A stretch of DNA of 35,192 bases from a virus. Lineage: Duplodnaviria; Caudoviricetes. The notes beneath the pieces are model-generated. The model was not told the DNA's origin, did no database searches, and worked only from the letters and a program-made list of their open reading frames with translations. The position numbers were made by a program, and so were the translations under genes. The stretch is from the IMG/VR virus record IMGVR_UViG_3300027956_000028, positions 1 to 35,192 of that record. One strand, 5' to 3'. This document shows positions 4,061 to 34,973 of the stretch, one piece after another. Within the stretch, counting starts at the first letter, position 1. Every line of letters begins with the position of its first letter.

Positions 4061-4414
4061 TTACACCTTTTTCAGCCAGAGTCTGCCGGGCTTCCCGCGC
4101 ACCCTGACCCATTTATAGACATCGCCGTTGATGATCTTTTTATCCCCTGCCTTTACCTTCTTCTTCGGCATGGCTACACCAGAGAATCTATATTTGTGTC
4201 CGGGTTCTGCAAATTCAAGCGGTCCCATGGCTACGTCCTGTTTGTATTTTTCCTGGATCTCACGCGCCACCTTCTCGTCTTTGACGTAAAAAGAGTTCCT
4301 GCTGCCGAAGAACATCTTTTTGCCGCCAACCTCCACGTGGTCAAAGCCGGGCTTGGTGGTGGCTTTCATCACCAGCATTCTCTTTCCGGGTTTGTAGTAG
4401 CCGCCGATCGCCAT
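4061..4414 (-). CDS. Hypothetical basic protein
   Basis: 117-aa Lys-rich ORF translationally coupled to its neighbours. Confidence 0.6.
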   Translation of the reverse strand: MAIGGYYKPGKRMLVMKATTKPGFDHVEVGGKKMFFGSRNSFYVKDEKVAREIQEKYKQDVAMGPLEFAEPGHKYRFSGVAMPKKKVKAGDKKIINGDVYKWVRVRGKPGRLWLKKV

Positions 4415-6333
4415 CAGCTCACCGACACCTTGATCTTCTTCGGGTCCATGAATTTCGCGCAGTGCTCAACAAGTTTCTCAGGGGTTTCGTTCTCCAGTCC
4501 TCTGTGAAACTCGCCGCGCATAAATTCCACTTTCGACAGATCCATATTCGGCAGGATCTCGTACTCTGCAAACTCCGCGTCGATCTTGAGCAGCTTGATC
4601 CTGCCTGTCTCTTTCAGAACATCACCGGCTGAAATAGACTTCACCTCGAACACCTGCGCGGCCGCCTCCGCCCGCAGATACATCGAAGAGGCGCCGTTGT
4701 TCTTTTCCAGGTCCCCGCCGATCTTCACGTCCCGGCCGTCTTTGGTCACAGCCAGGTTATGCGGGATGACGTTCTTCACTCCCGCCAGTTCGATATTCTT
4801 CAAGAGATATTCATAGTTTTCGGGGATGGGTTCGTAGGCGTAGACCTTCGCCTTGGGGTACATCTTCGCCAGGTAGATGCTTACCAGTCCAATGTGCGCG
4901 CCGATGTCCACGATCACATCGCCGTTCTTCACGCCCAACCCGTCCAGTTTGTAATCTCTCACGATCTCGCGCGCGATGATCTTGCCCACGCTCCCGGCAT
5001 GGTCGGGCTCCACAAAATCGAAGGCGGGTTTATAGCCATTCGGGACGATCCGCTTCACACCCTTCGGATTAATAATGAGTTCGTCGTTACATTTGTAACA
5101 ATAGGCGCTCACTGTCCCATCCGGGTTGGTCAGTCCGGTCTCGCTCCATTCATGATCGTGTTTGGGTTTGGCGGCGATCTCTTCGATCACAGGCTTGAGG
5201 TAGGTCTGGTACACGGTCTGGAAGTCGAAGCCTAAAGCAAAGTCTCGGGCTTTCTTTTCCAGCTTCGGCATGTATCCGGTTCTCCAGGCTTGATAGGCTT
5301 TTTCCAAAGCATCCACGGCGCTCTTTACATCCGCGATCCCATAGAAGGAATTGTTGGGCGTCCACTGCTTCGCGATGATCGGCACCTTCCAGCCTGCCCC
5401 GCAAAGGGTTCCCTGCGCGGCGAAGTCGGTTGTGATCACCGGCACGCCGCAGGCCTGCGCCTCGATCAGGGGTACCCCAAAGCCCTCGCCCTTCGAGAGC
5501 AGAATGAACACATCGAAGGCGTTATAGATCCTTGCCATCTGTTCAGGACCAAACATCTCGCCGGTGTAGTATTGCCACACATCCGGACCGATGATCTTGA
5601 TCCCATACATATCCGCCAGCGCGCCCAGGTTCATCCCGCCGAACTGCCCCGAAAGTTCAGAGTGGATGTAATACGCCGAGTCGGGGTGTCTTTTGTGGAA
5701 GATTGAAAACGCCTCGAAAGACTGCTGGAAGCCTTTACGGTCGAAGAAGCGGTCGATGTTCGCGGCAACCGTTCCCACCACGAAGGTCTTGTCGTCTACG
5801 GTGATCAGCCTCTTCTCGGGGGGGCGGGGGGCAAAGACGGCTGTGTCCACGCCGTGAGGGAAGTAGCGCGCTTTTACTCCATGCTTTTCCAGTTGGTCCT
5901 TCCCGAACAGACTCATTGCCATCGGGTAGGGAGAAGCCTCGAAGCGCGAGAGGATGTCGCCGGGGATAGGGTCGTGGTCGATGGGGCCGATCGCCATCCA
6001 CGGCACGCCCAGAGATTGCAACTCGTAGAGCGCTTCCATCGGGATCGCCCATAGGTCCATAAGGGTGATGATCAGATCCGGCTTGCCTCGCCTGGCATAT
6101 TCCACCATTCCCTGCCAGCCGTAGCTGTGACCGTTGTTCGTGATGGGAGAGGGCTGCCATCCGCCCGGCAGGTGAGCAACACCGTCGTACATAATGGCAG
6201 TGGCGTCGTCTTTATCCATTGCCACCACGCCCACAGTGTGCCCGTCCTTTTGGAGCAGCTTCACAAAGGCATTCGTCTGCACGCCGTAGCCGGTGCGGTT
6301 GTAGATGCTGGAGGAATGCCAGAGAATTCTCAT
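4414..6333 (-). CDS. GT4 glycosyltransferase fused through a CxxC linker to an FkbM-family methyltransferase
   Basis: GT-B features 'TGYG.QT', 'PHGVDT..F.P', 'RKG' and 'EGFGVPLIEAQACGVPVI'. C-terminal 'VDIGAHIG', 'AYEP' and 'LLKIDAE..EYEI' are FkbM motifs. Confidence 0.9.
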   Translation of the reverse strand: MRILWHSSSIYNRTGYGVQTNAFVKLLQKDGHTVGVVAMDKDDATAIMYDGVAHLPGGWQPSPITNNGHSYGWQGMVEYARRGKPDLIITLMDLWAIPMEALYELQSLGVPWMAIGPIDHDPIPGDILSRFEASPYPMAMSLFGKDQLEKHGVKARYFPHGVDTAVFAPRPPEKRLITVDDKTFVVGTVAANIDRFFDRKGFQQSFEAFSIFHKRHPDSAYYIHSELSGQFGGMNLGALADMYGIKIIGPDVWQYYTGEMFGPEQMARIYNAFDVFILLSKGEGFGVPLIEAQACGVPVITTDFAAQGTLCGAGWKVPIIAKQWTPNNSFYGIADVKSAVDALEKAYQAWRTGYMPKLEKKARDFALGFDFQTVYQTYLKPVIEEIAAKPKHDHEWSETGLTNPDGTVSAYCYKCNDELIINPKGVKRIVPNGYKPAFDFVEPDHAGSVGKIIAREIVRDYKLDGLGVKNGDVIVDIGAHIGLVSIYLAKMYPKAKVYAYEPIPENYEYLLKNIELAGVKNVIPHNLAVTKDGRDVKIGGDLEKNNGASSMYLRAEAAAQVFEVKSISAGDVLKETGRIKLLKIDAEFAEYEILPNMDLSKVEFMRGEFHRGLENETPEKLVEHCAKFMDPKKIKVSVS

Positions 6334-6599
6334 AACGGTTCACCCGCTGCGTCGCTCCAGACGGCTCGTCCGCCGTTGTAGGAGCAGGAGTGGTCGCTGT
6401 CACTGTGTCCTTTGGGGAGGGTGCAGGTCAGTGGCTTGCCGTCCGGTCGCTGCCGGTTGACGTGCCCGCATTTAGGGGCGGTGATCAGCTCGTCTTTTTC
6501 AAGCTCTCGCCACTCCACAACTTTGGTTACATCAGCCGGTTTCTCTTCCGGCTTTTCAGCCGGGGTTTCTTCAACAACTATTTTCTTTTTGGGTGCCAT
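6330..6599 (-). CDS. Small hypothetical protein with Cys/His motif
   Basis: MAPKKK... from the ATG at 6599, containing 'CGH...CTLPKGH...HSC'. Coupled to both neighbours. Confidence 0.55.
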   Translation of the reverse strand: MAPKKKIVVEETPAEKPEEKPADVTKVVEWRELEKDELITAPKCGHVNRQRPDGKPLTCTLPKGHSDSDHSCSYNGGRAVWSDAAGEPL

Positions 6600-7189
6600 T
6601 AGATTTCCTCTGTTCTGATTGCTGTGCAATCCTCGGGTAGTGAATAGATTTTGTAAAAGCCAAAACCCGCGCCGGGAACAATTCTTTCGTAGATCTGGGC
6701 GATGGCTTTTCGCTCCGCGTAACTCTTCACCAAATACTTGTAGTGCAGGATGGGGAACGACATCACCATCCCGATCCCAAACGGTGAGCCGCTGTGGATC
6801 GTCTGCCGACCGCCCGCCAGTTCTTTTGCGGTGAGCCGGGTTTGCAGGTCAGGGTAGAGCATGTCGTTGACGATGTAGTGTTTTTCGTCGCCCCACAGGT
6901 TCCAGCGCGGGAAGGTATATATGCCGCTGTCGAATTCGCCGCGCGAGAGCCAGTCGACGAAGTCCTCCCCGATCATCTCGTCGTCGTCCAGGCGCAGGAC
7001 GTAATCGCCGTGGCACATCGCAACGGCTTCATCCAGCACGCTTTCCAGGTAGCCGCCTGAGTGAACATCCGTGCCGTCCACAACTTTTACAAACTCCGCG
7101 CCCAGGGCTTCGGCAACCAGGCACATATCAGCCAGGAAAGGCTTTGCGCGCGGCTCGTTCTTTGTCACACAAAGGATGGATAATTTCAT
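6599..7189 (-). CDS. GT2/GT-A glycosyltransferase
   Basis: Starts 'MKLSILCVTKNE' and has the DxD motif 'YVLRLDDDE', plus 'YPD.Q.RL' and 'ILHY'. Confidence 0.85.
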   Translation of the reverse strand: MKLSILCVTKNEPRAKPFLADMCLVAEALGAEFVKVVDGTDVHSGGYLESVLDEAVAMCHGDYVLRLDDDEMIGEDFVDWLSRGEFDSGIYTFPRWNLWGDEKHYIVNDMLYPDLQTRLTAKELAGGRQTIHSGSPFGIGMVMSFPILHYKYLVKSYAERKAIAQIYERIVPGAGFGFYKIYSLPEDCTAIRTEEI

Positions 7190-7953
7190 GGGATCGTACT
7201 TTCTGTCAGCCAGGTATCTTCCCCGGCTTCGCGCCATTCAATCGTCGGACCGCGCATACTCGTACAGCGGAAGCAGGAGAGCGGCGTTTCTGCCTGGTCT
7301 AAAAATGCCTGCAACTTTTGCTCGGTGATCCCATCCAGAGAGAGAGCGTCCGTCCCCTCGGGTTGGTTCATCACCACGCGAGGAATAAAAACAGAGGTGC
7401 AGCAGCGATAGAAGTATCCGTTGTTCAAGGCTCTCGTCCATTTTTTGAACCAGCAGAATTTATATCTGTGCGCGGCTTCCTGCGGGCTTCCGTGTTCGCG
7501 GGTCAACAGTGCCGAGAAATAAGATGTAACCCGCGCATCCTTGACTTCCAGGTTTCGCCCGGTTTCGATGCATTTATTGCGTATCCACAAAACATCTTCG
7601 TCGCTCACCTTGCCGGGGTAGAGAGACAGAAAAAGCGTGTCGAAGCTCTCCCAAAACTCAGGCGGCTGCCGTCTGAGCGACATGCCGTTTGTCCATACTT
7701 CGATCTCATCCGCAATGCCGCTTGCGCGGACGATATGAAGGATGTCCACCAGCCGCTTGTGCAGGGTTGGCTCGCCTCCCAGGATGGCGTACTTTTCGAC
7801 GTGCGCCACCTCCCGGAAGATATGCAGATCCCGCTCCACGCTCTCCGGCTCCACAAAGGAAGGCTTGAGCGTCCCTACCATCTGTGTACAAGCCACGCAT
7901 TTACACTGGCAGGCGGTCGTAATATTCGTCTCACAATGCGGTAAGAGGATCAT
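7186..7953 (-). CDS. Radical SAM protein
   Basis: CxxxCxxC (CQCKCVAC), GGEP and TNG motifs, with C-terminal cysteines (C...RCC...CFRC) suggesting an auxiliary cluster. Confidence 0.9.
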   Translation of the reverse strand: MILLPHCETNITTACQCKCVACTQMVGTLKPSFVEPESVERDLHIFREVAHVEKYAILGGEPTLHKRLVDILHIVRASGIADEIEVWTNGMSLRRQPPEFWESFDTLFLSLYPGKVSDEDVLWIRNKCIETGRNLEVKDARVTSYFSALLTREHGSPQEAAHRYKFCWFKKWTRALNNGYFYRCCTSVFIPRVVMNQPEGTDALSLDGITEQKLQAFLDQAETPLSCFRCTSMRGPTIEWREAGEDTWLTESTIP

Positions 7954-8629
7954 CCAGAGCCTTTCCAAGTTCCATTTTCGGGAACACATCCAAATGCGTG
8001 TCGAGCGTGCAGTTGTAGACCCGCCCTCCGGCTTTCTCGTACTCCAGCTTTGCCCGTCGGTAGGCTTGTTCCATGCGGGGCAGGTTGGGGTTGTGCAGGC
8101 GTGTGCCGGGTTTGAAATAGTCGTCTGTAAAGTGATCCGGGTCAGAGCCGGTGGAAAGAAGAATCTCGCCTCCGTCTTTTTTATGAGGGGGCAGTTGGTA
8201 GCAATGTTGCACTCCCAAGAGATACGCGGTTCGTATGCCCATATAGAAAGCCAGTTGCAGCAGGAAGTATGTCACCGTGAAACCCAGCGAGAAGGTGTCT
8301 CCGTCCAGCCAGGCAGGCAACCCGTTTTCGTGCTCCGCCCAGCAGGCAGATACAGGAGTGAAATTGTCTGTGTTGGTAAAGTGCCATCTTTCGCAGGGAT
8401 AGAACGCCTGCGCTTTCACCTGGTGGATGATCTCGCTGTGTCTATCCTCGATCACCAGCACGTCCTCCACCGCGTAATACCTCAACGGCAGAAGAGATTT
8501 GTAGATCAGGTTTGAGCCGAAGGTCAGCCTGCCTTCAAAATCCAGAAGGTTCCGCCTGTTCAAAGTTTTGGCGTTGCCAAAAATGAAGGCATGTTTACCT
8601 GCGTGAATGTCTTTGAAGTTACCGATCAC
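7931..8629 (-). CDS. DUF115/MptE-like (Maf or sialyltransferase-like) protein
   Basis: 'FKDIHAGKHAFIFGN', 'TFGSN', 'TVTY..LQLAFYMG...YLLG' and 'HF..DYF' match this nucleotide-sugar transferase-like fold. Confidence 0.75.
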   Translation of the reverse strand: MIGNFKDIHAGKHAFIFGNAKTLNRRNLLDFEGRLTFGSNLIYKSLLPLRYYAVEDVLVIEDRHSEIIHQVKAQAFYPCERWHFTNTDNFTPVSACWAEHENGLPAWLDGDTFSLGFTVTYFLLQLAFYMGIRTAYLLGVQHCYQLPPHKKDGGEILLSTGSDPDHFTDDYFKPGTRLHNPNLPRMEQAYRRAKLEYEKAGGRVYNCTLDTHLDVFPKMELGKALDDPLTAL

Positions 8630-22028: not shown

Positions 22029-22562
22029 TCACACTCCAAGATAATTAGCAACTCTGCGATAGGTTTCAGCAGATAGGAAGTCGGCAGGATGCTTGTTGCG
22101 CTTCTTATTGTTACAGGAGCAGCAGGCTGGAACTATATTTCGTTTCGTGTATTCGCCGCCTTTCGAAACAGGGATGAAGTGTTCCTGAATCAGCCTTTTG
22201 TCAGAGCCGCAATAAGCACACCTGCTGTCAAAATCTATTAGTATTTGCTTCCACTCTTTAGCAGTCAAAGATGATGGAAGCCCATTCTTTTTTGCTGCGT
22301 ATCGCTGGACAGCCATCATTCGAGCCAAGCGTCCCTTTGCTGTTTCGAAGTAACTATTTATCGCTCTTCGAAGCGAAGACTTGCCCTTGTCGCTTTGAAA
22401 ATACCTTTTGTTTGCGCCTTTGTTTGATTCGTACATAAAACTTCTGTAAAGGGGATCGCCTCTCCGTGCTTTCATGCCGCAACGAGGCGAGCAATACGAG
22501 TTCTTTGACTGATTGCCTATATATTGCTTTCTACAAACCGAGCATGTCTTTTGAATTCTCAT
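22029..22562 (-). CDS. HNH endonuclease
   Basis: 'CAYCG...EHFIPVSKGG....NIVPACCSCNNKK' plus an N-terminal CxxC...YCS..C. Visibly lower GC than the flanks. Confidence 0.9.
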   Translation of the reverse strand: MRIQKTCSVCRKQYIGNQSKNSYCSPRCGMKARRGDPLYRSFMYESNKGANKRYFQSDKGKSSLRRAINSYFETAKGRLARMMAVQRYAAKKNGLPSSLTAKEWKQILIDFDSRCAYCGSDKRLIQEHFIPVSKGGEYTKRNIVPACCSCNNKKRNKHPADFLSAETYRRVANYLGV

Positions 22563-23396: not shown

Positions 23397-23528
23397 CTAC
23401 AACCAGATCCCAATGCCGGCGAGACACAATCCGGCACACAACCAATTGACTCGGCTTGGGCCGCCTATCAACGGCTCAAGCGCGCCAATGCCCCAGGCGA
23501 TCACGGCTAAGACTAAAAAGATATTCAT
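23397..23528 (-). CDS. 43-aa two-TM protein
   Basis: MNIFLVLAVIAWGIGALEPLIGGPSRVNWLCAGLCLAGIGIWL with an AAGGAG RBS. Confidence 0.6.
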   Translation of the reverse strand: MNIFLVLAVIAWGIGALEPLIGGPSRVNWLCAGLCLAGIGIWL

Positions 23529-23546
23529 ATCACACTCCTTCTATAA

Positions 23547-23636
23547 ACACAGAAAGCCGACAGGGACATAATGTCACTGCCGGCTGATATTTGATTTACT
23601 GCCCGTATATTATCACACTTCCCCGCGGCTATACAA
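23547..23636 (-). promoter_or_regulatory. Promoter and leader hairpin of the packaging operon
   Basis: TTGTAT-18 nt-TAATAT with a TG extension, then CAGTAAAT, then hairpin AGCCGGCAGTGACAT-T-ATGTCCCTGTCGGCT followed by TTCTGTGTTT. Confidence 0.55.
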
Positions 23637-23724
23637 CCTCCCCGCCCCTTGCACGATCACACTCCATCTTCCGAGTAGTACAAATGTCATATGTAAGATA
23701 TTACAAATATCACTGTTTCACCCC

Positions 23725-23752
23725 TTGACACAGTATCATTACGTGATACACT
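23725..23752 (+). promoter_or_regulatory. Sigma70-like promoter of the plus-strand island with an overlapping operator
   Basis: TTGACA-16 nt-TACACT with extended TG. Inverted repeat GTATCA-N5-TGATAC at 23733-23749. Confidence 0.75.
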
Positions 23753-23764
23753 AAGAGAGTAAGA

Positions 23765-23886
23765 GCACATTGACAACCGAACAGGTACAAAAGCCCGCCT
23801 CTGCGACAACAGAGACGGGCCGGCTCACCCGCTAGGATAAGCCGCTCCAATTGTACCCCACTCACCCGCTAAAAAAGGAATAAGCC
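23765..23886 (+). promoter_or_regulatory. Structured 5' leader (boxA-like element plus three-stem junction)
   Basis: GCACATTGACAACCGAA, then stems GGTACAA/TTGTACC, GCCCGCCTCTG/CAGAGACGGGC and CGGCT/AGCCG. CTCACCCGCTA...ATAAGCC is repeated. Confidence 0.5.
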
Positions 23887-23979
23887 ATGATCACTCTCGC
23901 CAACGCCCCCACCATCATTATCCTGATCGTAATCGTCCCCTTCGCAATCGCAATCTATAACACCTATTTCAAGTCATAA
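23887..23979 (+). CDS. 30-aa hydrophobic peptide
   Basis: MITLANAPTIIILIVIVPFAIAIYNTYFKS with an AAGGA RBS. Confidence 0.55.
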   Translation: MITLANAPTIIILIVIVPFAIAIYNTYFKS

Positions 23980-23990
23980 GGAAAAACATC

Positions 23991-24281
23991 ATGTTACAAA
24001 TTATTGAAGTCAAGCCCCGCACATACAAGGTTCCTTCCATAGACAACCGCAACCGCAAAGGTTACGCAATGTACTCGCTGGTTGCCGGCAAACTCGGCAC
24101 ACCCCTAACTGCTGAACTGACCACCCTGAGCGGCGATAAGGTAGAAGTTCGGTTCTCAGCGACCGGCTGGACGCTGGATTGCAAACACCCCGCAACCCGC
24201 ATTTACTCCTGGCTTGTTGGTGAAACTCTATGCGCCGGCTGTTGTGTGTGTGGCGCGGTCCTCTCCGGCGGCGTATCATGA
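23991..24281 (+). CDS. Hypothetical protein with a Cys-rich C-terminus
   Basis: AAGGA RBS, 'C.HP...CAGCCVCG' motif and ATGA coupling to the next gene. Confidence 0.65.
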   Translation: MLQIIEVKPRTYKVPSIDNRNRKGYAMYSLVAGKLGTPLTAELTTLSGDKVEVRFSATGWTLDCKHPATRIYSWLVGETLCAGCCVCGAVLSGGVS

Positions 24282-24484
24282 CCCCTCAACGCATCGGCTC
24301 CCTCTCCAAGTCCGCCCGCCTGATCGTCCTGCAAAGGATGATCGACGCCGGCACCCTGTCCACCAATAAGAACGAACTGGCGCGGCTATTCAAAGTCTCC
24401 CGCTTCACCCTCTACCGCGACCTGGCAGACCTTGAAGAACTCAAGCCCATCTTGAAGGAACTACTCAAGAAGGTGCAATCATGA
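24278..24484 (+). CDS. HTH DNA-binding protein
   Basis: 'KNELARLFKVSRFTLYRDLADL' is an HTH_11/DeoR-like helix-turn-helix. Confidence 0.8.
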   Translation: MTPQRIGSLSKSARLIVLQRMIDAGTLSTNKNELARLFKVSRFTLYRDLADLEELKPILKELLKKVQS

Positions 24485-25416
24485 ACTCCCTTACTCTCTC
24501 CCCTTCCACTTTCGACTACTCCGCCCTGGACCGCGCCGACCTTGCACACGGCACCCTCCGGCACTATAAAGCCGCCATTGCCCTGCTGATCGCCTCGAAC
24601 ATCAACCCCTTCGACTACCACCAGCTTGCAGACTACGCCGCGGCTCTGCCTTCCTCCGGGCGCTCCAACCTCAAAGCCGCGCTGGCGATCATCACAAGGG
24701 ATTACGTCAACCAGGTCAAAGCCGGCGCGACCGTGGATAATCACGCAGCCGTGCAGGCGTTCCTCTGGAAGATCGACGCCATGAACGAAGCGATCACCAT
24801 CACCCAGCCCGACTCCCAGCGCCAGCCGCATTGGCTCTCGCAAAGCCAGGTCGACCAGATCACCTCCCTCGCCCTCTCTCGCTCCATGCGGGATTACATC
24901 GTTCTGGCTACCCTCCTGGGTGCAGGCCTCAGACGGGAAGAGATGGAGACTTTGACCTTTGACTCCCTGCGCCAGATCCCAAACCAGAACACCCTACTCG
25001 ATGTCCTGGTCATCCACGGCAAGGGTGATAAAAAGCGCGTCGTCCGTATCTCCTCCCTGCTCGCCTCCCACTTGCGCGAATGGAAAGCGATCACCGGCGG
25101 CGGGCGCGTGGCTCGCTCTCTTGATAAGACAGGCGCGCTTGGGTCCAGCCTGTCCGCGGTCGGCATCTTCAGCATCGTCCGCAAATATGGCGCGCTTCTC
25201 GGCATCCCCAACCTGGACCCCCACGACCTCAGGCGCTCCTACGGCCGGCTTATGTACGAAGCCACCGGCGATATTATCCTGGTCATGAGCCTGCTGGGTC
25301 ACTCCAGCGTCAGGACCACCCAGAAATACATCGGACTGGACATCCGCCTGGACATCGACGAGGCCGCTTTCCCGGTCGGCGACAGGGATTATGTTATGAA
25401 GGTATCCGGCGATTGA
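24481..25416 (+). CDS. XerC/D-like tyrosine recombinase
   Basis: Catalytic residues R (GLRREE), K (HGKGDK), HxxR (HDLRR) and H/Y (LLGHSSVRTTQKY). 311 aa with no obvious arm-binding domain. Confidence 0.92.
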   Translation: MNSLTLSPSTFDYSALDRADLAHGTLRHYKAAIALLIASNINPFDYHQLADYAAALPSSGRSNLKAALAIITRDYVNQVKAGATVDNHAAVQAFLWKIDAMNEAITITQPDSQRQPHWLSQSQVDQITSLALSRSMRDYIVLATLLGAGLRREEMETLTFDSLRQIPNQNTLLDVLVIHGKGDKKRVVRISSLLASHLREWKAITGGGRVARSLDKTGALGSSLSAVGIFSIVRKYGALLGIPNLDPHDLRRSYGRLMYEATGDIILVMSLLGHSSVRTTQKYIGLDIRLDIDEAAFPVGDRDYVMKVSGD

Positions 25417-27782: not shown

Positions 27783-28153
27783 CCGACCGCCTTTCTGCTG
27801 ATATCCTGAATGATCTTCATCAGCTTCGGGTCCGTCTCCAGTTCGAGCGGCGGCAGCGGCGGTTGTTTTCCGATCTGGACGATGTACTCCAGAAGGGCAT
27901 ACACGTACTGCCACAGGGCTGTGTTCTTGGAAATGAACATCGACTGCTCGCGCTTGAGATTGATCACCTCATCCGACAGCTCGCGGACCTTGTCCACCAA
28001 TTCCTGGAACGTCTCGATTTCCACGGCGCTGGCGTCGGCTTTGTCCTTGCGAGCCTTGGCTTGGTTGGTTGCCCGGTTTCCGAAAAAGACAATCGCGCCG
28101 CCCACAACCGATGCAATGGCAGCAATGATCGAGATCAGTATGGGATTATCCAT
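27779..28153 (-). CDS. N-terminal TM plus coiled-coil lysis-module protein
   Basis: Hydrophobic N-terminus, heptad region and a 'PPLPP' tail. Confidence 0.65.
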   Translation of the reverse strand: MDNPILISIIAAIASVVGGAIVFFGNRATNQAKARKDKADASAVEIETFQELVDKVRELSDEVINLKREQSMFISKNTALWQYVYALLEYIVQIGKQPPLPPLELETDPKLMKIIQDISRKAVG

Positions 28154-28400
28154 TCAAGGCCTCAGAGATCAGATAGGCAAGGATCACAGCTTGAAAGAAA
28201 CGCATCCATAACCTGACCTCAAACTCTGGAATAACCCCCAGGATCACCAGTCCGTAGACCACCGCGACATACAGGGCGATAAATAGCCCGCTGATACGCA
28301 ACCCCCTGCGCAAATTCTCTTTGCCAGTGCGCCGCCAGTTGACCCAGATGGCAATGACCGCCAGCGCAAAATTGAGCACAACCCAGATATCGATCATCAT
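28146..28400 (-). CDS. Three-TM membrane protein (holin candidate)
   Basis: 84 aa with three hydrophobic segments. Confidence 0.6.
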   Translation of the reverse strand: MMIDIWVVLNFALAVIAIWVNWRRTGKENLRRGLRISGLFIALYVAVVYGLVILGVIPEFEVRLWMRFFQAVILAYLISEALNG

Positions 28401-28462
28401 GAGGAGATGTCCCGAGTGGGCGTCCAGGCCTTCCGAGGAGGACGCCCACCCGTATCGAAGGA

Positions 28463-28867
28463 CTACTTGAGCAGCGCCTGCGCCCGTTCGCGATGGAACA
28501 CAACCCGGATGTATCCGAGGGTGGCAAGCACCGCAAGCAGGACATTCAAACCGATCATCACGTAGATGTCATACTGGGCCGGCACCACGTCGATTAGTCC
28601 CTGGAGTTGCAGGATCAGGAACTCGGAGACGCCCACCGCCAGCCCTGCACCCAGACCGCGCAGATCGATACCCACTTTGTCGAATGCCCATTGGAGCCCA
28701 AACGTCACCCCAAACAGAACCAGGGCGTTGATCGCCAATTTGAGTTCGATCGGAAGCTGGACTGCCTGGGATGTGGCAATTGCACCGGGGGCCGGAGTAC
28801 ACGCCGAGAGGGAAAAGAGAAACACCAACGCCAGGACTGCAAACAAGAACAACTTACTTATCTTCAT
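28463..28867 (-). CDS. Lipoprotein/membrane protein, first gene of the lysis operon
   Basis: Lipobox 'LSAC' followed by three hydrophobic segments, with an AAGGAG RBS. Confidence 0.7.
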   Translation of the reverse strand: MKISKLFLFAVLALVFLFSLSACTPAPGAIATSQAVQLPIELKLAINALVLFGVTFGLQWAFDKVGIDLRGLGAGLAVGVSEFLILQLQGLIDVVPAQYDIYVMIGLNVLLAVLATLGYIRVVFHRERAQALLK

Positions 28868-28887
28868 GGGAAACTCCTTTTGTGAAC

Positions 28888-29008
28888 AAAAAAAGACGGC
28901 CGCGCAAAACCTTATCAGGTTTCACACGGCCATCCTTGGATCTCCGTCTCGCTCGCGCCCATCCGTAGATCTGCGCGAACTATTTACTTGACAAGATTCA
29001 TTCTACCA
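28888..29008 (-). promoter_or_regulatory. Extended -10 promoter and leader terminator of the lysis operon
   Basis: TGGTAGAAT (29000-29008), then CAAGTAAAT, then hairpin GATGGCCGTGTGAAACCT...AGGTTTTGCGCGGCCGTC followed by seven T residues. Confidence 0.65.
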
Positions 29009-29293
29009 CTACTTGAGCAGTTTATCCCCTTCCGCCTTGACGGTCCCGGCTGCCTTCCAGAACGATTGCCACAACCCGCGCAGCGTACGCCTCTGCCCAT
29101 CTTCGATCCGGGAGAGCTTCGCGTCGATGCCATGCAGGGAGTCGTTCACCTGCCGGAACACCTTCACTACATCCGGCGCTTCGAGGTCTGCGTTCTCCGG
29201 GCGCTCGTGGAGGTTCAGGAGGGCGTGATATACCGCGCGCGTCTTGGTTGTGTCGTTGCCGAACCATTTAGGGACCGATAAAGGGTTGTTCAT
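29009..29293 (-). CDS. Hypothetical protein upstream of the lysis promoter
   Basis: 94 aa from the ATG at 29293, with a GGAG RBS. Confidence 0.65.
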   Translation of the reverse strand: MNNPLSVPKWFGNDTTKTRAVYHALLNLHERPENADLEAPDVVKVFRQVNDSLHGIDAKLSRIEDGQRRTLRGLWQSFWKAAGTVKAEGDKLLK

Positions 29294-29386
29294 GCTTGCT
29301 CCAGTGGCACCGCGCTTTGTAGCACCGACGCGCGCGGTTGTCAATACAAATATCCTACAATAGGGCTACGGGGTGAGTGCAGCGTC

Positions 29387-29509
29387 GCCGAACGGCGCGT
29401 TACTTGCGGGGCGGTTCTTCGGTGATATTCGACCAATCGAAACCGCCTATCGAGCCATCATCCATTTTTCGCCAGCTTTTAGCCCCGTCAGGTGCACGCT
29501 TTGTTAGGT
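29387..29509 (-). mobile_element. attC site (123 bp)
   Basis: Minus strand R'' ACCTAAC, spacer AAAGC, left arm GTGCACCTGACGGGGC, right arm GCCCCGCAAGTAAC, R' GTTCGGC. The arms pair with two unpaired extra bases. Confidence 0.8.
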
Positions 29510-29730
29510 GCGGCACAACTGGAGTATTACGATGGCGACGAAATGCTGACGTACTGCGGTTGTCTCTCCATGCGCGGATTCGCAACTTGCCACCAGCCAC
29601 TGTAAAGCGGAACCGATGAACCAAACCGCAATCACAACAGGCGATTTTATAATCTTTATGCCGCCAATCTAAATCAACGGCTTGTCCTTCTTCAATGTTT
29701 GGATAATCATTTGCCATGTGAACCACCTAA
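29393..29730 (-). mobile_element. Integrated integron-type gene cassette
   Basis: Begins at G|TTAGGTG (29731-29724), the exact complement of CACCTAAC at R''. It carries one ORF and ends at G|TTCGGC. Confidence 0.75.
29400..29717 (-). CDS. Cassette-borne CCDC..VH protein reading through attC
   Basis: Paralog of 21310..21528. The C-terminal 'HLTKRAPDG...' is translated attC sequence. Confidence 0.8.
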   Translation of the reverse strand: MANDYPNIEEGQAVDLDWRHKDYKIACCDCGLVHRFRFTVAGGKLRIRAWRDNRSTSAFRRHRNTPVVPHLTKRAPDGAKSWRKMDDGSIGGFDWSNITEEPPRK

Positions 29731-29731
29731 C

Positions 29732-30016
29732 TTATGACTTTACAAGCACGCGCTTTATTTCGCGTGCAGGTTCAAGGCTCTCCGCCTCTTTCATGATATC
29801 CGCCGCAAGTCTTGGACAGCCGCCATGTGTTCCAAGCAGCATATACTCCCCCGCCAGTTCCAGCAGCGCCTCCCGGTCTCCTGCCACAAGCGCCCGCGTG
29901 TGCCTCTCGTTCATCTGCCCAAGCTGTTCAATGGCGGCGGTCTCTTTCGGCTTGCGCTTCACCTGCATCGCGAAGCGTTCCACGATCTTGGGCTGTTCAG
30001 CAATAATGGTATTCAT
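29732..30016 (-). CDS. Hypothetical protein
   Basis: 94-aa ORF coupled to the upstream gene. Confidence 0.65.
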   Translation of the reverse strand: MNTIIAEQPKIVERFAMQVKRKPKETAAIEQLGQMNERHTRALVAGDREALLELAGEYMLLGTHGGCPRLAADIMKEAESLEPAREIKRVLVKS

Positions 30017-30243
30017 TAGCGCTCCAGCATGATATGAACACTGCCAACTCTTTCGGAGCAGGGAACACGGACAGGCGCTCCGTTTTGATAGGGGCTTTCG
30101 GGTCCGCGTATCTTCCAGCCCAATTCCGTCCCTGCCGGGTTTTTCCGGTTAGCAAACTCGATCACCTGCTCGTCTGTCCAATCCGCAGGTACACAGACCT
30201 GCATGTCTAAGGCTCCCGACCGCGTCATGACTGCCGTGTTCAT
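30016..30243 (-). CDS. Hypothetical phage protein
   Basis: 75 aa containing 'MQVCVP.DWTDEQV..FAN..NP.GT..GW.IR', with a GAGGA RBS. Confidence 0.7.
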   Translation of the reverse strand: MNTAVMTRSGALDMQVCVPADWTDEQVIEFANRKNPAGTELGWKIRGPESPYQNGAPVRVPCSERVGSVHIMLER

Positions 30244-30359
30244 AGTTCCTCGTCGGAGTTGATGCGCTTCTCAAATCGACCGCCGGCGAAGCCTGTCTTA
30301 TATCCAACAATCAAGCCGATGATCAAGCCAGCCAGAAAAATGATGATATAGATTGTCAT
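30240..30359 (-). CDS. 39-aa single-TM protein
   Basis: MTIYIIIFLAGLIIGLIVGY..., with a GGAGG RBS and ATGA coupling. Confidence 0.55.
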   Translation of the reverse strand: MTIYIIIFLAGLIIGLIVGYKTGFAGGRFEKRINSDEEL

Positions 30360-30592
30360 TTCAGCCTCCAATAGCTGTTCGCTTCCGCCAGGATCTTCTC
30401 GGCGCGCTCTTTGCCGAAGATCTCCAGGCACCTCTCACAAGTCACGATAAGAGACTTGTTCCCACTCTTATCCGTCTTTGAAATATCTTCCTTGAACTCG
30501 CTCTTGTTCTCGGAGATGTAGCCGCACGCGGCTTTGTAGGTCGTGGGTTCGCCCGGCGTACAGGACGTGCGAGCGACGAGGTGGGTGTTCAT
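30356..30592 (-). CDS. Hypothetical Zn-binding protein
   Basis: 'H...ACG...VTCERC' motif. Confidence 0.6.
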   Translation of the reverse strand: MNTHLVARTSCTPGEPTTYKAACGYISENKSEFKEDISKTDKSGNKSLIVTCERCLEIFGKERAEKILAEANSYWRLK

Positions 30593-30921
30593 AGCTTCTT
30601 TCTCATTTCGTCTCTCGTTGCCTTTGCCATCTGTCCGACCTTCTGCCTCTGCCCGTCGAACCAGGCTCGCGCCTCAGGGGTATCCTGTAACCATTTCGGC
30701 AAAGGTCGCACCCCGCGCGGCTTCTTCAAGCCCAGCAAGACCAACAGGCGCTTATCCTTCGGCAACCACTCGCCGCCTTTGTTTGCAATCCGGTTGATGG
30801 TTGCATGGCTGATCTGGTTGCCGTAATCCTCGCGGGCGATCGTGCGCCACGATCTGCCTTTGGCGTTTTCGTCGCAGAGGCGTTTTGCGAGTTTCCGGGC
30901 GCGGGCAGCAGAAATGTACAT
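30589..30921 (-). CDS. Putative HTH protein
   Basis: 'SWRTIAREDYGNQISHATINRIA' resembles an HTH. Confidence 0.6.
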   Translation of the reverse strand: MYISAARARKLAKRLCDENAKGRSWRTIAREDYGNQISHATINRIANKGGEWLPKDKRLLVLLGLKKPRGVRPLPKWLQDTPEARAWFDGQRQKVGQMAKATRDEMRKKL

Positions 30922-30961
30922 TGATGTCTTTCCGTGATGCTGGAGGGGCTGTAACAAGTCG

Positions 30962-31123
30962 TTACAACTGCCTCAGAGCCATGTCGACCAGCCGGCGGTT
31001 CACCGGGTGGAAGCCGTCCACGCTCGGCGCAGGTTTTGCGCGCTCTCGCTCCACGTCCAGGATGAACGATGCGACCGCCGCCAGCATGGTTAGTTTGATT
31101 AGGATGGCGACTAAGTCTGGCAT
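30962..31123 (-). CDS. 53-aa protein with a hydrophobic N-terminus
   Basis: MPDLVAILIKLTMLAAVASFILDVER... fills the gap between neighbouring genes. Confidence 0.4.
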   Translation of the reverse strand: MPDLVAILIKLTMLAAVASFILDVERERAKPAPSVDGFHPVNRRLVDMALRQL

Positions 31124-31482
31124 TCGTTCTCACTCAGGAAGCTGGCGTTGACCCAGGCCACGTCGCCGTTCCATTCGATCTGTGCCCAGCCTCCCAGGCA
31201 TTCGCCGGTCAGGGTTACATTGTCGCCGGAGTAGAGATAGCCGATCACAGACGCGTTCTCGTTCGGCTCCTGCCGGACGTGGAGGGACTGGATCGCCGTG
31301 ACTGTGGAAACTGTTGGCAGTTCCGCGGTAGGCGTTGATACTGCGGGGACTGCCAACGCTTCGGCGGTCGGGGTGGGTGAAACTGTTGGCAACGGGTCTG
31401 TGATCGCCGGCATGATCTCAGGAGAGCAGGCCGCGAGTATCAGGCTTGCCAGTATCAGATGTTTTGCCAGTATCGAATTCAT
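31111..31482 (-). CDS. Lipoprotein with an SH3b domain
   Basis: Lipobox LAAC, Pro/Thr linker and 'LHVRQEP.....VIGYL..GD.V...G....GW..I......WV...FL'. Confidence 0.85.
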   Translation of the reverse strand: MNSILAKHLILASLILAACSPEIMPAITDPLPTVSPTPTAEALAVPAVSTPTAELPTVSTVTAIQSLHVRQEPNENASVIGYLYSGDNVTLTGECLGGWAQIEWNGDVAWVNASFLSENECQT

Positions 31483-31952
31483 AGTTCAGCCTCTTGTCAC
31501 CGCGATACTGTCAATCAGGATGTTTCCTTTGCCAGTATCGAATCCAAAGGAATGTTCGGGATGCTCAACTGCTATGTAAATCTTCCCGTCCTTTGCCAGT
31601 ATCGCGACTTTGCACCCGAACGAGCGGAGGTCGAAACAGTCGGTCTGCAAGAGTGATACTGTCTCGCCCAGGGTCTGCGGCTTTGTTCCGTTCGTTTCTT
31701 TCGCGATACTGGCTGGCTCGATACTGGCGACTTCGGGGAGTGGTTGCGATGGGGCCGCCGTAGGGTCGTTTTCGCTTGCCAGTATCGGGGTCTTTGTAGT
31801 CCCATTGCCAGTAGTGATGTCCGGTTTTTCGAGTTGTTCCATCTTTACCTTTGCGCTTTCCTTCAAAGAACGAGATACGTCTGCCTTCAGAAACGTCCGT
31901 GCCAGTATCGCTTGCCAGTATCGAATCCAATTGTTCCAGTACCGATACTGAC
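31433..31952. repeat. Dispersed array of GCCAGTATCG in both orientations
   Basis: Exact copies at 31466, 31531, 31595, 31778, 31901 and 31914 (+) and at 31704 and 31719 (-). Variants at 31433, 31448, 31503, 31654, 31807, 31935 and 31943. Confidence 0.9.
31486..31842 (-). CDS. Hypothetical protein overlapping 31565..31972
   Basis: ATG at 31842 after AAAGGT. Disordered N-terminus, globular-looking C-terminus, and a stop 3 nt before the lipoprotein start. Confidence 0.5.
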   Translation of the reverse strand: MEQLEKPDITTGNGTTKTPILASENDPTAAPSQPLPEVASIEPASIAKETNGTKPQTLGETVSLLQTDCFDLRSFGCKVAILAKDGKIYIAVEHPEHSFGFDTGKGNILIDSIAVTRG

Positions 31953-31972
31953 ACGGACTCTGCTCTATACAC
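31565..31972 (-). CDS. Small basic putative DNA-binding protein
   Basis: 3' part of the 344-codon ORF, containing 'GHHYWQWDYKDPDTGKRKRPYGG', a basic/aromatic beta-hairpin-like segment. The start is uncertain (GTG at 31972). Confidence 0.5.
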   Translation of the reverse strand: MYRAESVSVSVLEQLDSILASDTGTDVSEGRRISFFEGKRKGKDGTTRKTGHHYWQWDYKDPDTGKRKRPYGGPIATTPRSRQYRASQYRERNERNKAADPGRDSITLADRLFRPPLVRVQSRDTGKGREDLHSS

Positions 31973-31983
31973 CTCCGCCGGCT

Positions 31984-32700
31984 CTACCTCCGCGACGGAG
32001 GCCGGATAGGGTCCGGGCTGCTGTGCCCGTTGTTTCCGGCTTCTGTTGACACTCGCAGGGTCCGCTCCATATCCTGCCAACTCTTTTCGCCCTGCTCCCT
32101 TCCGAGTACCGGGGCGCTCTCCTCTGCCAGTTCTTTGTAGCGTTTGGCGCGGGCTTGCGCCATGTTTTTTCGTGCGTCGGCGTCTGCCTGTTTGATCGCC
32201 TTCTCCGCCTCCCTGTTCGTCTTGGCAATCACGCGCCGCAGCGACGCTTCCTCGCTGAAGAAGTAGTGCAGGGTTGCCAGCACTCCCTGCGCTACCGCAA
32301 GAGTCGGAACCACATACACCACCGTCTTTTGTGCCCACTCCGGCACATTTGCAAAGACAGTAAAGATCTGTTCGAGCTGCGCATTCTTCGCCACAATAGT
32401 CACAGAGGCCAGGTCGGTCACGGCGATAGAGACCCACGCCAACCCGGACCCAAGGATAGCGGCTCCCATCTGTACATAATTGCCGTAGTCCTCGATCCGG
32501 TTTGCCCAATACAGACTCGCCCCCTCCGCCAGGAGGACGAGAGCGATCACATAGAGCCAGTTGTGGGTGTACGACCATGCGGCGTAACCTGTCAGGCAAC
32601 CCGTCACGGTCAGGGCGGCATAGCGAAGCCAGTGCCGGGAGAGTCCGGCGAAAAAGTTGATCAGTTTTCGATTTGTCTGGTTTTGGTTTTCTGTTTCCAT
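31984..32700 (-). CDS. Four-TM membrane protein with a C-terminal coiled coil
   Basis: Four hydrophobic segments followed by an Ala/Glu/Lys/Arg helix, with an AAGGA RBS. Confidence 0.8.
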   Translation of the reverse strand: METENQNQTNRKLINFFAGLSRHWLRYAALTVTGCLTGYAAWSYTHNWLYVIALVLLAEGASLYWANRIEDYGNYVQMGAAILGSGLAWVSIAVTDLASVTIVAKNAQLEQIFTVFANVPEWAQKTVVYVVPTLAVAQGVLATLHYFFSEEASLRRVIAKTNREAEKAIKQADADARKNMAQARAKRYKELAEESAPVLGREQGEKSWQDMERTLRVSTEAGNNGHSSPDPIRPPSRR

Positions 32701-32715
32701 AACTAAATTCCTTTC

Positions 32716-32991
32716 CTACAAATCGTCGTTATCGACAAATGAGATTTCCCAGCGGTTGGGTCCAACGTGCGTATGCACTTCGGTAACATTGCCGGCCTCG
32801 GTCGTGCCGGCTGTGATCCTGCTGACATCCTCGCCGCTGCAGGCCCGCACCTCGATGACCGTCCGACCGCACTTGTCTTTGTGCGTGCCGGTGATCGAAG
32901 GCGGAATATATACGTCGTAGGGGTCTGGCTGGGAAGCTAACTCGGACATAATCCCTACTGTGTGGCGAACTAAAGATTTCAAGAAACTCAT
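32716..32991 (-). CDS. Hypothetical protein
   Basis: 91 aa with an AAGGAG RBS. Confidence 0.65.
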   Translation of the reverse strand: MSFLKSLVRHTVGIMSELASQPDPYDVYIPPSITGTHKDKCGRTVIEVRACSGEDVSRITAGTTEAGNVTEVHTHVGPNRWEISFVDNDDL

Positions 32992-33082
32992 ACGGTGCTC
33001 CTTTTGGTAAAATCTGGCTGTCCGCTTGCGCGGGTAGGTGCTCCGCTGCTCTTGCCAGCAGCTCCGCGCAGGCGGACACTAA

Positions 33083-33304
33083 TTATTTGCTTGCCCGTCT
33101 CTTCTCGACCAGATCCAGGACAAACGCGGCGAGCAGGATGAGCGCAGACGCAATGCCGACGACGATCCAGTAGATGTCTATAAGGCGCAGCGTCATATAT
33201 GCGATCACGACGAACAACACAAGCGTGTAGTATCGTTCGCGCTTTGCCTGAGCTGCTCGGGCGATCTCGTCGGCGCGGTCTGCGTCGGCAGTGAAGGGAG
33301 TCAT
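33083..33304 (-). CDS. Two-TM membrane protein
   Basis: 73 aa with ATGA coupling. Confidence 0.65.
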   Translation of the reverse strand: MTPFTADADRADEIARAAQAKRERYYTLVLFVVIAYMTLRLIDIYWIVVGIASALILLAAFVLDLVEKRRASK

Positions 33305-33819
33305 TTCTTTGCCGCCTTCATACCTTCCTTGAAGGCTTCGTTTAGCCGCTTGAAATCCTCTTCTTTCCCGCCAACGTCGGGGTGGTGGACCATCGACAGG
33401 GCACGGAAGGCGCTGCGGATATCCTCACGCGTGGCGTCTGCCTGCACGCCCAATATCTTGAACCATGGATCCTTCCCATCCCCAAGCAGCAGGGCAGTGT
33501 CGTCCGGCGTTGCCAGGAAGCCATTGAAAATACGGTCGAATTCGATGTCGAAGGACGACTCGATAATGTCTTCGGCGTAGACTTCCAGCGCCCGGTACAG
33601 GTACTCGATCTGTAAGCCGATCACCCGCAGGTTGTCCAGGGAGTTTTCGTACTTTGAGCACTCCCGGACGTAGCGCTTCCCGGCGCGGTCGAAGGTGACT
33701 TTCACGCCGCCGCCCATCACGTCCTGCTCCAGGCGCAGGGACGTGGCATTGATCTTTGTCATGACCCGCTGGAGGTCGCGGGTGGTCGTGCTCTGTTGTG
33801 CCGCAAAACGTCGTGGCAT
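33301..33819 (-). CDS. Phage J-domain (DnaJ-like) protein
   Basis: C-terminal 'WFKILGV..DAT..DIR.AFR.L....HPD.GG..E.F..LNEAF'. Start is the ATG at 33819. Confidence 0.85.
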   Translation of the reverse strand: MPRRFAAQQSTTTRDLQRVMTKINATSLRLEQDVMGGGVKVTFDRAGKRYVRECSKYENSLDNLRVIGLQIEYLYRALEVYAEDIIESSFDIEFDRIFNGFLATPDDTALLLGDGKDPWFKILGVQADATREDIRSAFRALSMVHHPDVGGKEEDFKRLNEAFKEGMKAAKK

Positions 33820-34163: not shown

Positions 34164-34973
34164 CTAAAACCGATAGCCTTCCGGCATGACTTTGCGCCCA
34201 TCCGGTCCATTCAGATACACAACCGGACCCAGGCGGCGATCTGCAAGGCGACTCCTGAGGTACCCATCCAGCGCAGCTTCGCTTTTGTTGGAAGCGATCA
34301 CCGTCAGGGCTTCCTCCCGGATCGCCCGCATGTAGCGCTGGTCAAGGAGTTGGAAGAGTCGCTCCTGCGCCCACGGCGTATCGTTGGATTTATCCAACTC
34401 ATCCAGAAAGAGCACATCCCGCGAAACCCACCAGTCGATCCGGCGCAGAAGTTCGGTGGTCTTATGTTCCTGTGCATCAAATGCCAGGCGGATATCATCC
34501 AGGACCGAGGACATATTGGCATAAGCCGCGCGCTTTCCATCTCGCAGGGCTGTGGAAGTCAGGATCTTGCCGATCAATGTCTTTGCCTGCCCCCATGTGC
34601 CCCACAGAAAGATCATGCCGTAACCACGCATGTAAGCCGGGCGCACGGCATCCATAGCCAATACACCGTCTGAGACTCCGGGTTTGATCAGCGACCAATC
34701 CATGTTCAATTCATCCTCTCGCAGTCCCATACGGGAATAATCGGGCTTGTTCTTCTCAGCCAGAAGCCGGGCCCGCATCTGCGAGGTGCAGGGACAGGTG
34801 AACCAGGTTCCGTATTTCTCGGACTTCTTCCAGCCCCATCCGCCACAGTGGCGGCAGTCCGAGTCAGCGTCCGAGTGCGGAGTGGGCGGGCGCTCCGGCG
34901 CGCCAGGAACGCCACGGCTTTGGATCCTCTCTCGCAGAGTGAGGGACTCTTTTCGCAAAGTTGATAATGTCAT
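34164..34973 (-). CDS. DnaC/IstB-like AAA+ helicase loader
   Basis: Zn motif CRHCGG...CPC, Walker A variant GTWGQAKT, Walker B LFLDE, 'LLDQRY', 'ASN', 'SRL' and 'GPD.R'. Confidence 0.85.
   Translation of the reverse strand: MTLSTLRKESLTLRERIQSRGVPGAPERPPTPHSDADSDCRHCGGWGWKKSEKYGTWFTCPCTSQMRARLLAEKNKPDYSRMGLREDELNMDWSLIKPGVSDGVLAMDAVRPAYMRGYGMIFLWGTWGQAKTLIGKILTSTALRDGKRAAYANMSSVLDDIRLAFDAQEHKTTELLRRIDWWVSRDVLFLDELDKSNDTPWAQERLFQLLDQRYMRAIREEALTVIASNKSEAALDGYLRSRLADRRLGPVVYLNGPDGRKVMPEGYRF

Follow-up and report, generated by a model that had tools for sequence, protein, structure and literature searches.

A candidate site-specific membrane tether, probably expressed by −1 frameshifting, in a tailed temperate phage and its relatives

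The phage module examined here (a membrane protein gene, a predicted DNA-binding domain encoded by ORF A, and an array of short repeated words) has partial counterparts in several described systems. The SpdB2, SpdA2/sps and TraB/clt components of Streptomyces plasmids (PMC4447253, PMC4170104) likewise include a four-helix membrane protein with a coiled coil on a mobile element, and SpdA2, like the phage module, provides a DNA-binding protein with sites (sps) in its own gene. In the passages of those papers that deal with them, SpdB2 shows no sequence specificity in its DNA binding and SpdA2, a protein of its own, recognizes one to three palindromes, whereas the parts of the phage module are probably joined by a −1 frameshift, its 3–16 sites are non-palindromic and written in phage-specific words, and a TraB motor is mostly absent. 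The Streptomyces host is filamentous, as the host of the phage probably is too. The phi29 protein p16.7, an integral membrane protein, has been proposed as the anchor of replicating viral DNA (PMC4974454, PMC4446434), and it resembles the module as a phage-encoded membrane protein with such a proposed role. It differs in acting via the terminal protein and displaced single strands, and the passages of those sources concerned with p16.7 describe neither a site array nor a frameshift; PHROG and Pfam scans of the membrane protein studied here named no p16.7 family. The AlpA/alpS/AlpC system of Corynebacterium prophage CGP3, as outlined in PMC4446434, shares with the module an integrating prophage, a DNA-binding protein with a local repeat cluster, and, as proposed for the module, the placing of phage DNA at the membrane for replication. 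It depends, however, on an actin-like filament, a soluble adaptor and sites in a promoter, whereas no ATPase was identified in the phage module.

Two further comparisons concern the parts of the module. The arm-type domains of tyrosine integrases (Tn916, PF02920; lambda, PF09003) resemble ORF A, as modeled, in their three-stranded sheet and helix, and the arm sites of IntS, in the part of PMC11963761 that presents them, are also 10-bp non-palindromic sites in several copies; ORF A differs in having no recombinase attached, a longer beta hairpin, scores below the Pfam cut-offs and no structure-search match. Phage −1 frameshifts such as that of the lambda G/GT tail chaperones, as treated in the relevant sections of PMC7618472 and PMC10885494, similarly combine a slippery heptamer before a stop with a stem-loop and yield two products, and 2397 of the 2476 annotated frameshift cases in the SEA-PHAGES set reported there (PMC10885494) are tail chaperones. 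The phage module, in contrast, involves an early membrane gene and an appended, predicted DNA-binding domain. Given that it has no TraB motor, no Par proteins and no family match above cut-off, we regard the module as one that would work like p16.7 or like SpdB2 with SpdA2/sps and is a member of neither system.

A local array of repeated words and its predicted reader

The window, by which we mean the whole stretch of DNA that was analyzed, is one entire virus record of 35,192 bases. Its gene content (terminase, major head protein, GH25 endolysin, tyrosine integrase and DnaC-like loader) is that of a tailed temperate phage, and the part missing from the window was taken from a second, complete record of this phage (G001, 46,344 bases). 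The features of the module and its context are collected in Table 1.

Table 1. Features of the module and of its surroundings in the window
Feature	Position	Strand	Remark
SH3-domain lipoprotein (bacterial SH3), likely cell-wall binding	31111..31482	−	SH3_3 E 5.9e-11
15-site array, consensus (T)GCCAGTATCG	31433..31952	both orientations	lies within ORF A and ORF B and reaches into the beginning of the lipoprotein gene
ORF B (118 aa) in the membrane-gene frame, with its own ATG; overlaps ORF A	31486..31842	−	ATG conservation and codon test
ORF A, −1 frame extension, 147 codons past the shift	31565..32008	−	third-position excess in own frame
ORF A core, predicted three-stranded beta sheet and helix, arm-binding-like	about 31676–31879	−	core pLDDT about 95
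Predicted stem-loop, 5 nt past slippery site, membrane-gene stop in loop	31971..32002	−	MFE −18.2
Membrane protein gene, 238 aa, 3–4 transmembrane segments then coiled coil	31984..32700	−	predicted short product of the likely frameshift locus
Likely slippery site G_GAC_CCT, membrane-gene frame, 21 nt before membrane-gene stop	32008..32014	−	
Tyrosine integrase	24481..25416	+	context: temperate phage
DnaC-like helicase loader	34164..34973	−	context: upstream of membrane gene, same strand

An earlier note on this DNA had reported 8 exact and about 7 near-exact copies of a 10-mer, a count borne out by our scan: eight exact copies of GCCAGTATCG (on the plus strand at 31466, 31531, 31595, 31778, 31901 and 31914; on the minus strand at 31704 and 31719), three with one mismatch (31448, 31503 and 31943) and four with two (31433, 31654, 31807 and 31935). 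The 19-mer that it had located at 31529 and 31912 and the forward-copy spacings of 65 and 64 bp were both found as well. With up to one mismatch allowed, the window held 12 matches, 11 of them in the array, compared to a mean of 2.1 and a maximum of 6 in 100 shuffles of the window. The word is the commonest 10-mer of the contig (8 copies versus 4 for the next unrelated word). A genome-wide k-mer count had been proposed as a check, and the motif proved not to be equally frequent elsewhere, with 8 of 8 exact copies in the complete G001 record falling in the array. An exact 15-mer scan of viral contigs returned 62 loci, with several copies in the same phage only.

Scans with the ORF A alignment yielded 5 viral and 35 metagenome loci, of which 11 were removed as duplicates by match statistics, and the remaining 29 were examined together with the window. 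The core word was present near ORF A in all 30 rows, at 3–16 copies with few copies outside; these rows include three pairs that come from one genome or are near-identical, and the low copy counts stem mostly from cut contigs. The earlier note had wished to know whether homologous loci carry repeat arrays, and all of these ORF A loci do. The positions and orientations of the copies differ from row to row, extending over 500–900 bp with free spacing, and a site profile built from 200 sites in 20 loci gave (T)GCCAGTATCG, the letters on either side being free.

Depending on frame and strand, the word translates as DTG, ILA or SI. In sequence that encodes ORF A only, the Ile codon was ATA in 19 of 19 IL[AED] occurrences, compared to 3% of the Ile codons in eight phage genes, and GATACTGG encoded 16 of 17 DTG. 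Judged by this codon usage, the array is kept at the DNA level through rare codon choice. The reading of the word as a protein repeat, which the earlier note had already argued against, is ruled out by its occurrence in several frames and on both strands and by its upkeep through rare codons.

ORF A has 13 close homologues, and a profile reaches about 16 more distant representatives; a profile search of 1.84 billion proteins gave 18 matches, the last two clearly unrelated. The structural model is a confident beta-beta-beta-alpha arrangement (strands 30–39, 45–58 and 69–72, helix 78–97), and the predicted sheet is basic and aromatic in composition. Its top Atlas matches were the arm-binding domains of the Tn916 and lambda integrases (0.93–0.94), which share 112–127 features with ORF A, fewer than the 170 typical of true family members. 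Pfam Integrase_DNA (PF02920) matched weakly in 3 of 40 ORF A members (best E 0.033, below the cut-off), Foldseek comparison of the model to the PDB and to viral models gave nothing at E 0.001, and PDB sequence searches gave nothing significant for ORF A or ORF B. By the Atlas match, which comes from a language model, and the weak Pfam match, the predicted fold resembles that of an integrase arm-binding domain. The IntS arm-site consensus, presented in the relevant part of PMC11963761 as TGKTGGTATC, shares 7 of 10 letters with TGCCAGTATC. We consider it likely that ORF A reads the word.

A related domain occurs in another setting. The ORF that starts 474 nt past the membrane stop of locus L134 (protein P0026) has the look of what we take to be a T5orf172/GIY-YIG nuclease, and its protein terminates in an ORF-A-like domain (E 0.0007 to the A profile). 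In L069, L082 and L137, genes for nucleases of this kind come after ORF B. By this similarity, a nuclease of the P0026 type is a possible source of the reader domain.

The picture of an array laid over several ORFs, as the earlier note had drawn it, holds, with the amendment that a second conserved gene, ORF B, overlaps the basic ORF. ORF B lies in the +1 frame relative to ORF A and has 40 homologues. Its ATG was at an identical position in 23 of 23 loci, and a GAT or AAT codon of A gave rise to it in 20 of 20 aligned loci, versus 48 of 142 for T-ending Asp/Asn codons in the rest of A. Substitutions favored A's third position in the core of ORF A (0.44 versus 0.30 and 0.26) and B's third position in the tail of ORF A (0.36 versus 0.21 and 0.24). 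By these codon patterns, ORF A and ORF B are two overlapping genes under selection. The N-terminal half of the ORF B protein is of low complexity and the C-terminal domain is alpha/beta, with a model that is poor overall; PDB sequence search and Foldseek gave no fold match and no likeness to any DNA-binding fold. An SH3 lipoprotein homologue was found downstream in 17 of 36 loci, or in 13 of the 18 loci with at least 1.5 kb available, and thus is a frequent, inconstant fourth gene.

The membrane gene and its junction with ORF A

The 4-TM coiled-coil gene of the earlier note is present, although a hydropathy scan found three segments in the window protein, four in most full-length relatives and five in one. 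A Pfam scan of the membrane protein gave no family above cut-off. The basic YWQW...GKRKRPYGG ORF that had been singled out is also real and corresponds to ORF A; it lacks a conserved start codon, and ribosomes probably enter it by −1 frameshifting. Upstream DNA was available for 28 loci. In 27 of them, the longest ORF on that side terminates in the +1 frame relative to ORF A and the A frame is open across its stop, the 28th locus being cut by its own contig end. Often there is no start codon between the upstream stop and the ORF A core. The −1 frame is also open across the membrane-gene stop in 13 of 13 further loci that are described in the next section.

Slippery sites were counted in 25 loci, with two duplicates and the contig-end-cut locus excluded. 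A strict X_XXY_YYZ heptamer in the membrane frame, no more than 15 codons from the stop, was present in 18 of the 25 (4.6% expected): A_AAC_CCT in 10, C_CCA_AAA in 5, C_CCA_AAC in 2 and A_AAT_TTT in 1. As background, strict heptamers numbered 18 in 5703 codons and occurred at 0 of 32 ORF ends on the minus strand of the window. When loci were reduced to 20 junction groups, 14 were strict (binomial p 6e-15). The remaining seven loci end in C_CCT, a class drawn up post hoc after inspection of the data, and include the window with its G_GAC_CCT, which is not of the strict form; the same heptamer is found in L079, L092, L100, L124, L126, L133 and L134. A downstream stem-loop at a spacer of 3–7 nt was supported by a mean MFE of −15.9 versus −7.9 (p 1e-11), and the hairpins of four C_CCA_AAA loci were weak. 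The window hairpin, with the MFE listed in Table 1, was more stable than 41 of 41 gene-body windows and had a z of −1.47 versus shuffles, values that apply to this copy alone. The −1 frameshift signal described in the pertinent section of PMC7618472 has two parts, with the structure usually 5–9 nt away; the heptamer and hairpin match this two-part signal, and the 3–7 nt spacer is close to the usual distance.

The upstream membrane proteins fall into at least five groups unlinked by BLAST, each with about four hydrophobic segments and a charged tail. All of these families keep the signal, which therefore outlasts the surrounding sequence. The slippery heptamer before a hairpin, together with the frame relation, thus makes a programmed −1 frameshift likely, and we infer with high confidence that such a shift fuses the membrane protein to ORF A. 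The predicted products are a short form of 238 aa and a fusion of ~378 aa; a weak search among longer proteins found no natural in-frame fusion. The earlier note had proposed separate membrane and basic proteins as partners in a tether. The tether idea gains ground, whereas the two partners are probably one −1 frameshift polypeptide.

Other explanations of the junction were considered. Sequencing error at the frame change was ruled out: the contig of run X1, possibly the record's source, showed 0 differences over window positions 28011–33500, the X2 contig had 40 substitutions and no gaps over positions 31969–32672, both lack an indel at the junction, and the same frame relation was seen in 27 loci. 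That ribosomes read through the stop of the membrane gene and continue into ORF B is unlikely, because extra stops break that frame in many loci among those listed and ORF B has its own ATG. In L097, an in-frame stop lies within the membrane gene (L097:990) with the slippery site and array intact, either a mutation or an assembly error.

The membrane proteins of L070, L088, L092, L095, L098–L101 and L105 carry a DxDGDG..N..D motif past the last hydrophobic segment, and in those of L081 and L084 the motif is N-terminal with weak EF-hand matches; its sequence suggests calcium binding.

The fusion could instead be a regulatory device that acts as an autorepressor or transcription roadblock on its own gene and sets the expression of the early genes downstream, while the frameshift limits how much of it is made. 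Sites inside and just past the gene are as expected for such a regulator, which a low-yield frameshift would presumably suit; however, up to 16 sites in both orientations, freely spaced over 500–900 bp of coding sequence, exceed the needs of an operator, and the membrane anchor kept across five unlinked families stays unexplained. We consider regulation improbable.

Exchange of domains and words across related phages

Three membrane-family scans yielded 13 further distinct loci after removal of two duplicates and of loci already in hand; a fourth such scan (alignment A6) returned no locus, and an alignment A3 scan returned no new one. A slippery-type site was present in all 13. Ten of them possess another, longer −1 frame domain, an overlapping B-like ORF and a word of their own: GAGCCAACAG in L121, ATATACTGGC in L124, (G/C)CGTTAGGA in both L126 and L134, GGTCATGGA in L129, TGCCATAACA in L131, AATGCCACTG in L132, AAGTAGTGGA in L133, AATCTAATGG in L137 and GCGTTGGCAA in L138. 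The word-by-locus table was near diagonal. Because each word was chosen from its own locus, control windows matter: five copies of any 8-mer were reached in 0 of 166 phage-DNA windows (950 nt), versus 11 of the 13 loci and the window.

L126 and L134 differ in their membrane families and have the same domain family and word, whereas L124 and L137 have related domains (E 4e-30) and different words. ORF B varies together with ORF A across the loci, so that co-variation cannot separate A from B as the reader of the word. The co-variation that the earlier note had put forward as a check is seen in part: each domain goes with its own array word, ORF B co-varies too, and L124 and L137 pair related domains with different words.

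The remaining three loci (L123, L127 and L128) have a short CxxC extension in place of the longer domain, which is zinc-finger-like in L127 and L128. L123 has no array; in L128 (1139–1830) and L127 (3490–4170), a relative of the membrane gene with this extension is followed by 11 and 5 copies, respectively, of TTATCCACA, which we take to be the DnaA box. There, the private word seems to have given way to the site of a host protein. An SH3 lipoprotein follows the TTATCCACA array of L128.

These loci bear on whether the reader of the word might be ORF B or a host protein rather than ORF A. ORF B is conserved and under selection, and like ORF A it changes along with the word; the presumed DnaA boxes of L127 and L128 would be the site of a host protein. 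At least 10 different words nevertheless argue against a single host reader, and it is ORF A that has the basic, aromatic beta sheet and the arm-binding match, ORF B having no match to a DNA-binding fold. A reader other than ORF A thus appears quite improbable.

Neighborhood, host and possible role of the module

Of 14 scanned loci, 10 had replication or recombination genes (DnaB, DnaC, DnaD-like, primase and junction resolvases) on the same strand and no more than about 3 kb upstream, and the module likewise stands behind replication genes in the window and in G002. The O-like initiator genes of G001, G002 and G004 each contain three direct repeats of their own (15–22 nt), which are likely the replication origins of these phages. 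Those of G001, each 22 nt long, lie just past the right end of the window (L109:847–928), contain an inverted element and are in a putative initiator gene upstream of dnaC. The earlier note had offered an origin or operator array as its alternative, and the array could in principle be a set of iterons bound by the fusion as a membrane-bound initiator, given the replication genes nearby and the replacement of the array by presumed DnaA boxes in L128 and L127. This alternative is weakened by the 22-nt repeats in the initiator gene of the same phage; unlike the direct iterons of a lambda-type origin, the array lies outside that gene, its sites are of mixed orientation and variable spacing, and its 1-kb bin is not AT-rich (GC 0.56). 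We judge an origin at the array very improbable.

A tyrosine integrase is encoded by G001, G004 and G010 and a serine recombinase by G008; neither type was found in the complete records G003, G005 and G007, and a tyrosine-type search found none in G011. ParB (PF02195) was detected in 0 of 9 records, a ParA-like ATPase (PF13614) in 0 of 4, and an FtsK/TraB-like motor (PF01580) in 1 of 10, G004, being absent from this phage. In the 56-kb G004 record (L114–L116), the terminase, the portal and the head and tail sets each occur twice, on opposite strands, as if two phages had been joined or two prophages lay side by side; its FtsK-like gene is in the left part, ~29 kb away from the module. The notion of a centromere for an extrachromosomal phage, as the earlier note had it, is weakened by the encoded tyrosine integrase and by the position of the module mostly behind replication genes. 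The phage has an integrase, and its likely origin iterons lie elsewhere, which makes both plasmid partition and an origin less likely as the function of the array.

Several other features of this phage were observed. In the stretch 23437–25416, the integrase, which is short (311 aa), is flanked by the lysis genes and the terminase region and is encoded on the strand opposite to theirs; a single CAGTATC core occurs at 23731 in the AT-richer gap preceding it. A gene with a C-terminal DnaJ domain (Pfam E 7e-11) is located upstream of the module at 33301–33819 (−). A glycosyltransferase/FkbM-methyltransferase fusion and a radical SAM gene lie amid structural genes at 4414–8629 (−), and G003 has a larger sugar-modification cluster. 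Positions 29530–29675 have a second, diverged copy in the run X1 contig, ~1 kb before window position 22500, and thus form a repeated element in the phage.

Searches of cultured phages and plasmids gave no ORF A match, and cultured phages gave no match to the terminase. A GTDB genome scan returned one weak match (26 residues, E 9e-5) that we took as chance, so no host genome was found, and contigs aligned to the window revealed no host junction. The Atlas look-alikes of the membrane protein are phage and Chloroflexota clusters, one cluster being mostly Chloroflexota, and the host is probably a member of the Chloroflexota. SH3 lipoproteins rich in Pro/Thr are typical of Anaerolineae.

The same fusion and sites might serve to pass phage DNA to daughter or neighboring cells, by ATPase-less partition or by spreading along Chloroflexota filaments in a Spd-like manner. 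The membrane protein resembles SpdB2 in its predicted four helices and coiled coil, an SH3 lipoprotein adjoins, Chloroflexota appear among the Atlas look-alikes, and three complete records have no integrase or serine recombinase found and none of the nine searched has ParB. The sequence link to Spd proteins is confined to one weak match to DUF2637 (1 of 21 membrane proteins, E 0.0038, below the cut-off), a family that we take to cover SpdB2-like proteins. In the passages on the Spd proteins, SpdB2 forms pores and has homologues in actinophages (PMC4447253), and SpdA2 recognizes a site within the gene that encodes it and contributes to stability (PMC4170104). On the other side, tyrosine integrases occur in this phage, in G004 and in G010, G008 encodes a serine recombinase, the motor occurs in one record that is apparently two phages joined, the module sits behind replication genes, and the Chloroflexota host is presumptive. 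We regard passage of DNA between cells as possible, if rather doubtful.

We lean instead, with modest confidence, toward a site-specific membrane tether that holds replicating phage DNA. Most ribosomes would stop after the 238-aa membrane protein, and a minority would slip at the G_GAC_CCT heptamer to make the ~378-aa fusion, such that short and long forms would share one membrane patch with the membrane protein in excess. The ORF A beta sheet would bind the 10-bp word, one domain per site, and the 15 sites clustered in the reader's own gene would create one avid attachment point per genome, by which the fusion would hold phage DNA at the cell membrane during replication. ORF B and the SH3 lipoprotein are probably accessory; we guess that the lipoprotein fixes the patch to the wall. 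The module occurs in integrating and apparently non-integrating phages, behind replication genes, and use during DNA replication is therefore favored, although the purpose (replication versus spreading versus partition) is the weak step. The membrane-tether idea of the earlier note gains from the conservation of the array with ORF A and from the other words that accompany other domains, whereas the extrachromosomal centromere has become weaker.

A bolder and more doubtful extension is that the module is a widespread, exchangeable "address system" of Chloroflexota-type phages, in which a small number of frameshifted subunits with a private reader, whose gene would hold the word peculiar to that phage lineage, clamp their own genome to a wall-anchored patch or pore for motor-free carriage into daughter or neighboring cells. 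If so, the differing words would keep co-resident phages apart, like incompatibility groups.

A full-text literature search, with most subscription journals outside its coverage, found no paper on such a frameshifted membrane anchor, and the family is hidden in databases because gene callers miss the predicted fusion. The module offers a compact case in which phage DNA may be fixed to the membrane via a site-specific anchor, in contrast to known anchors that, as the cited sources present them, are non-specific (p16.7, SpdB2) or filament-dependent (AlpAC). If true, it would represent a new phage use of −1 frameshifting beyond tail and capsid genes, one that sets the share of DNA-binding subunits in a membrane complex. 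The roughly ten natural domain-and-word pairs offer a set for the recognition code of small beta-sheet DNA readers, and they may also be usable toward orthogonal DNA-to-membrane tethers.
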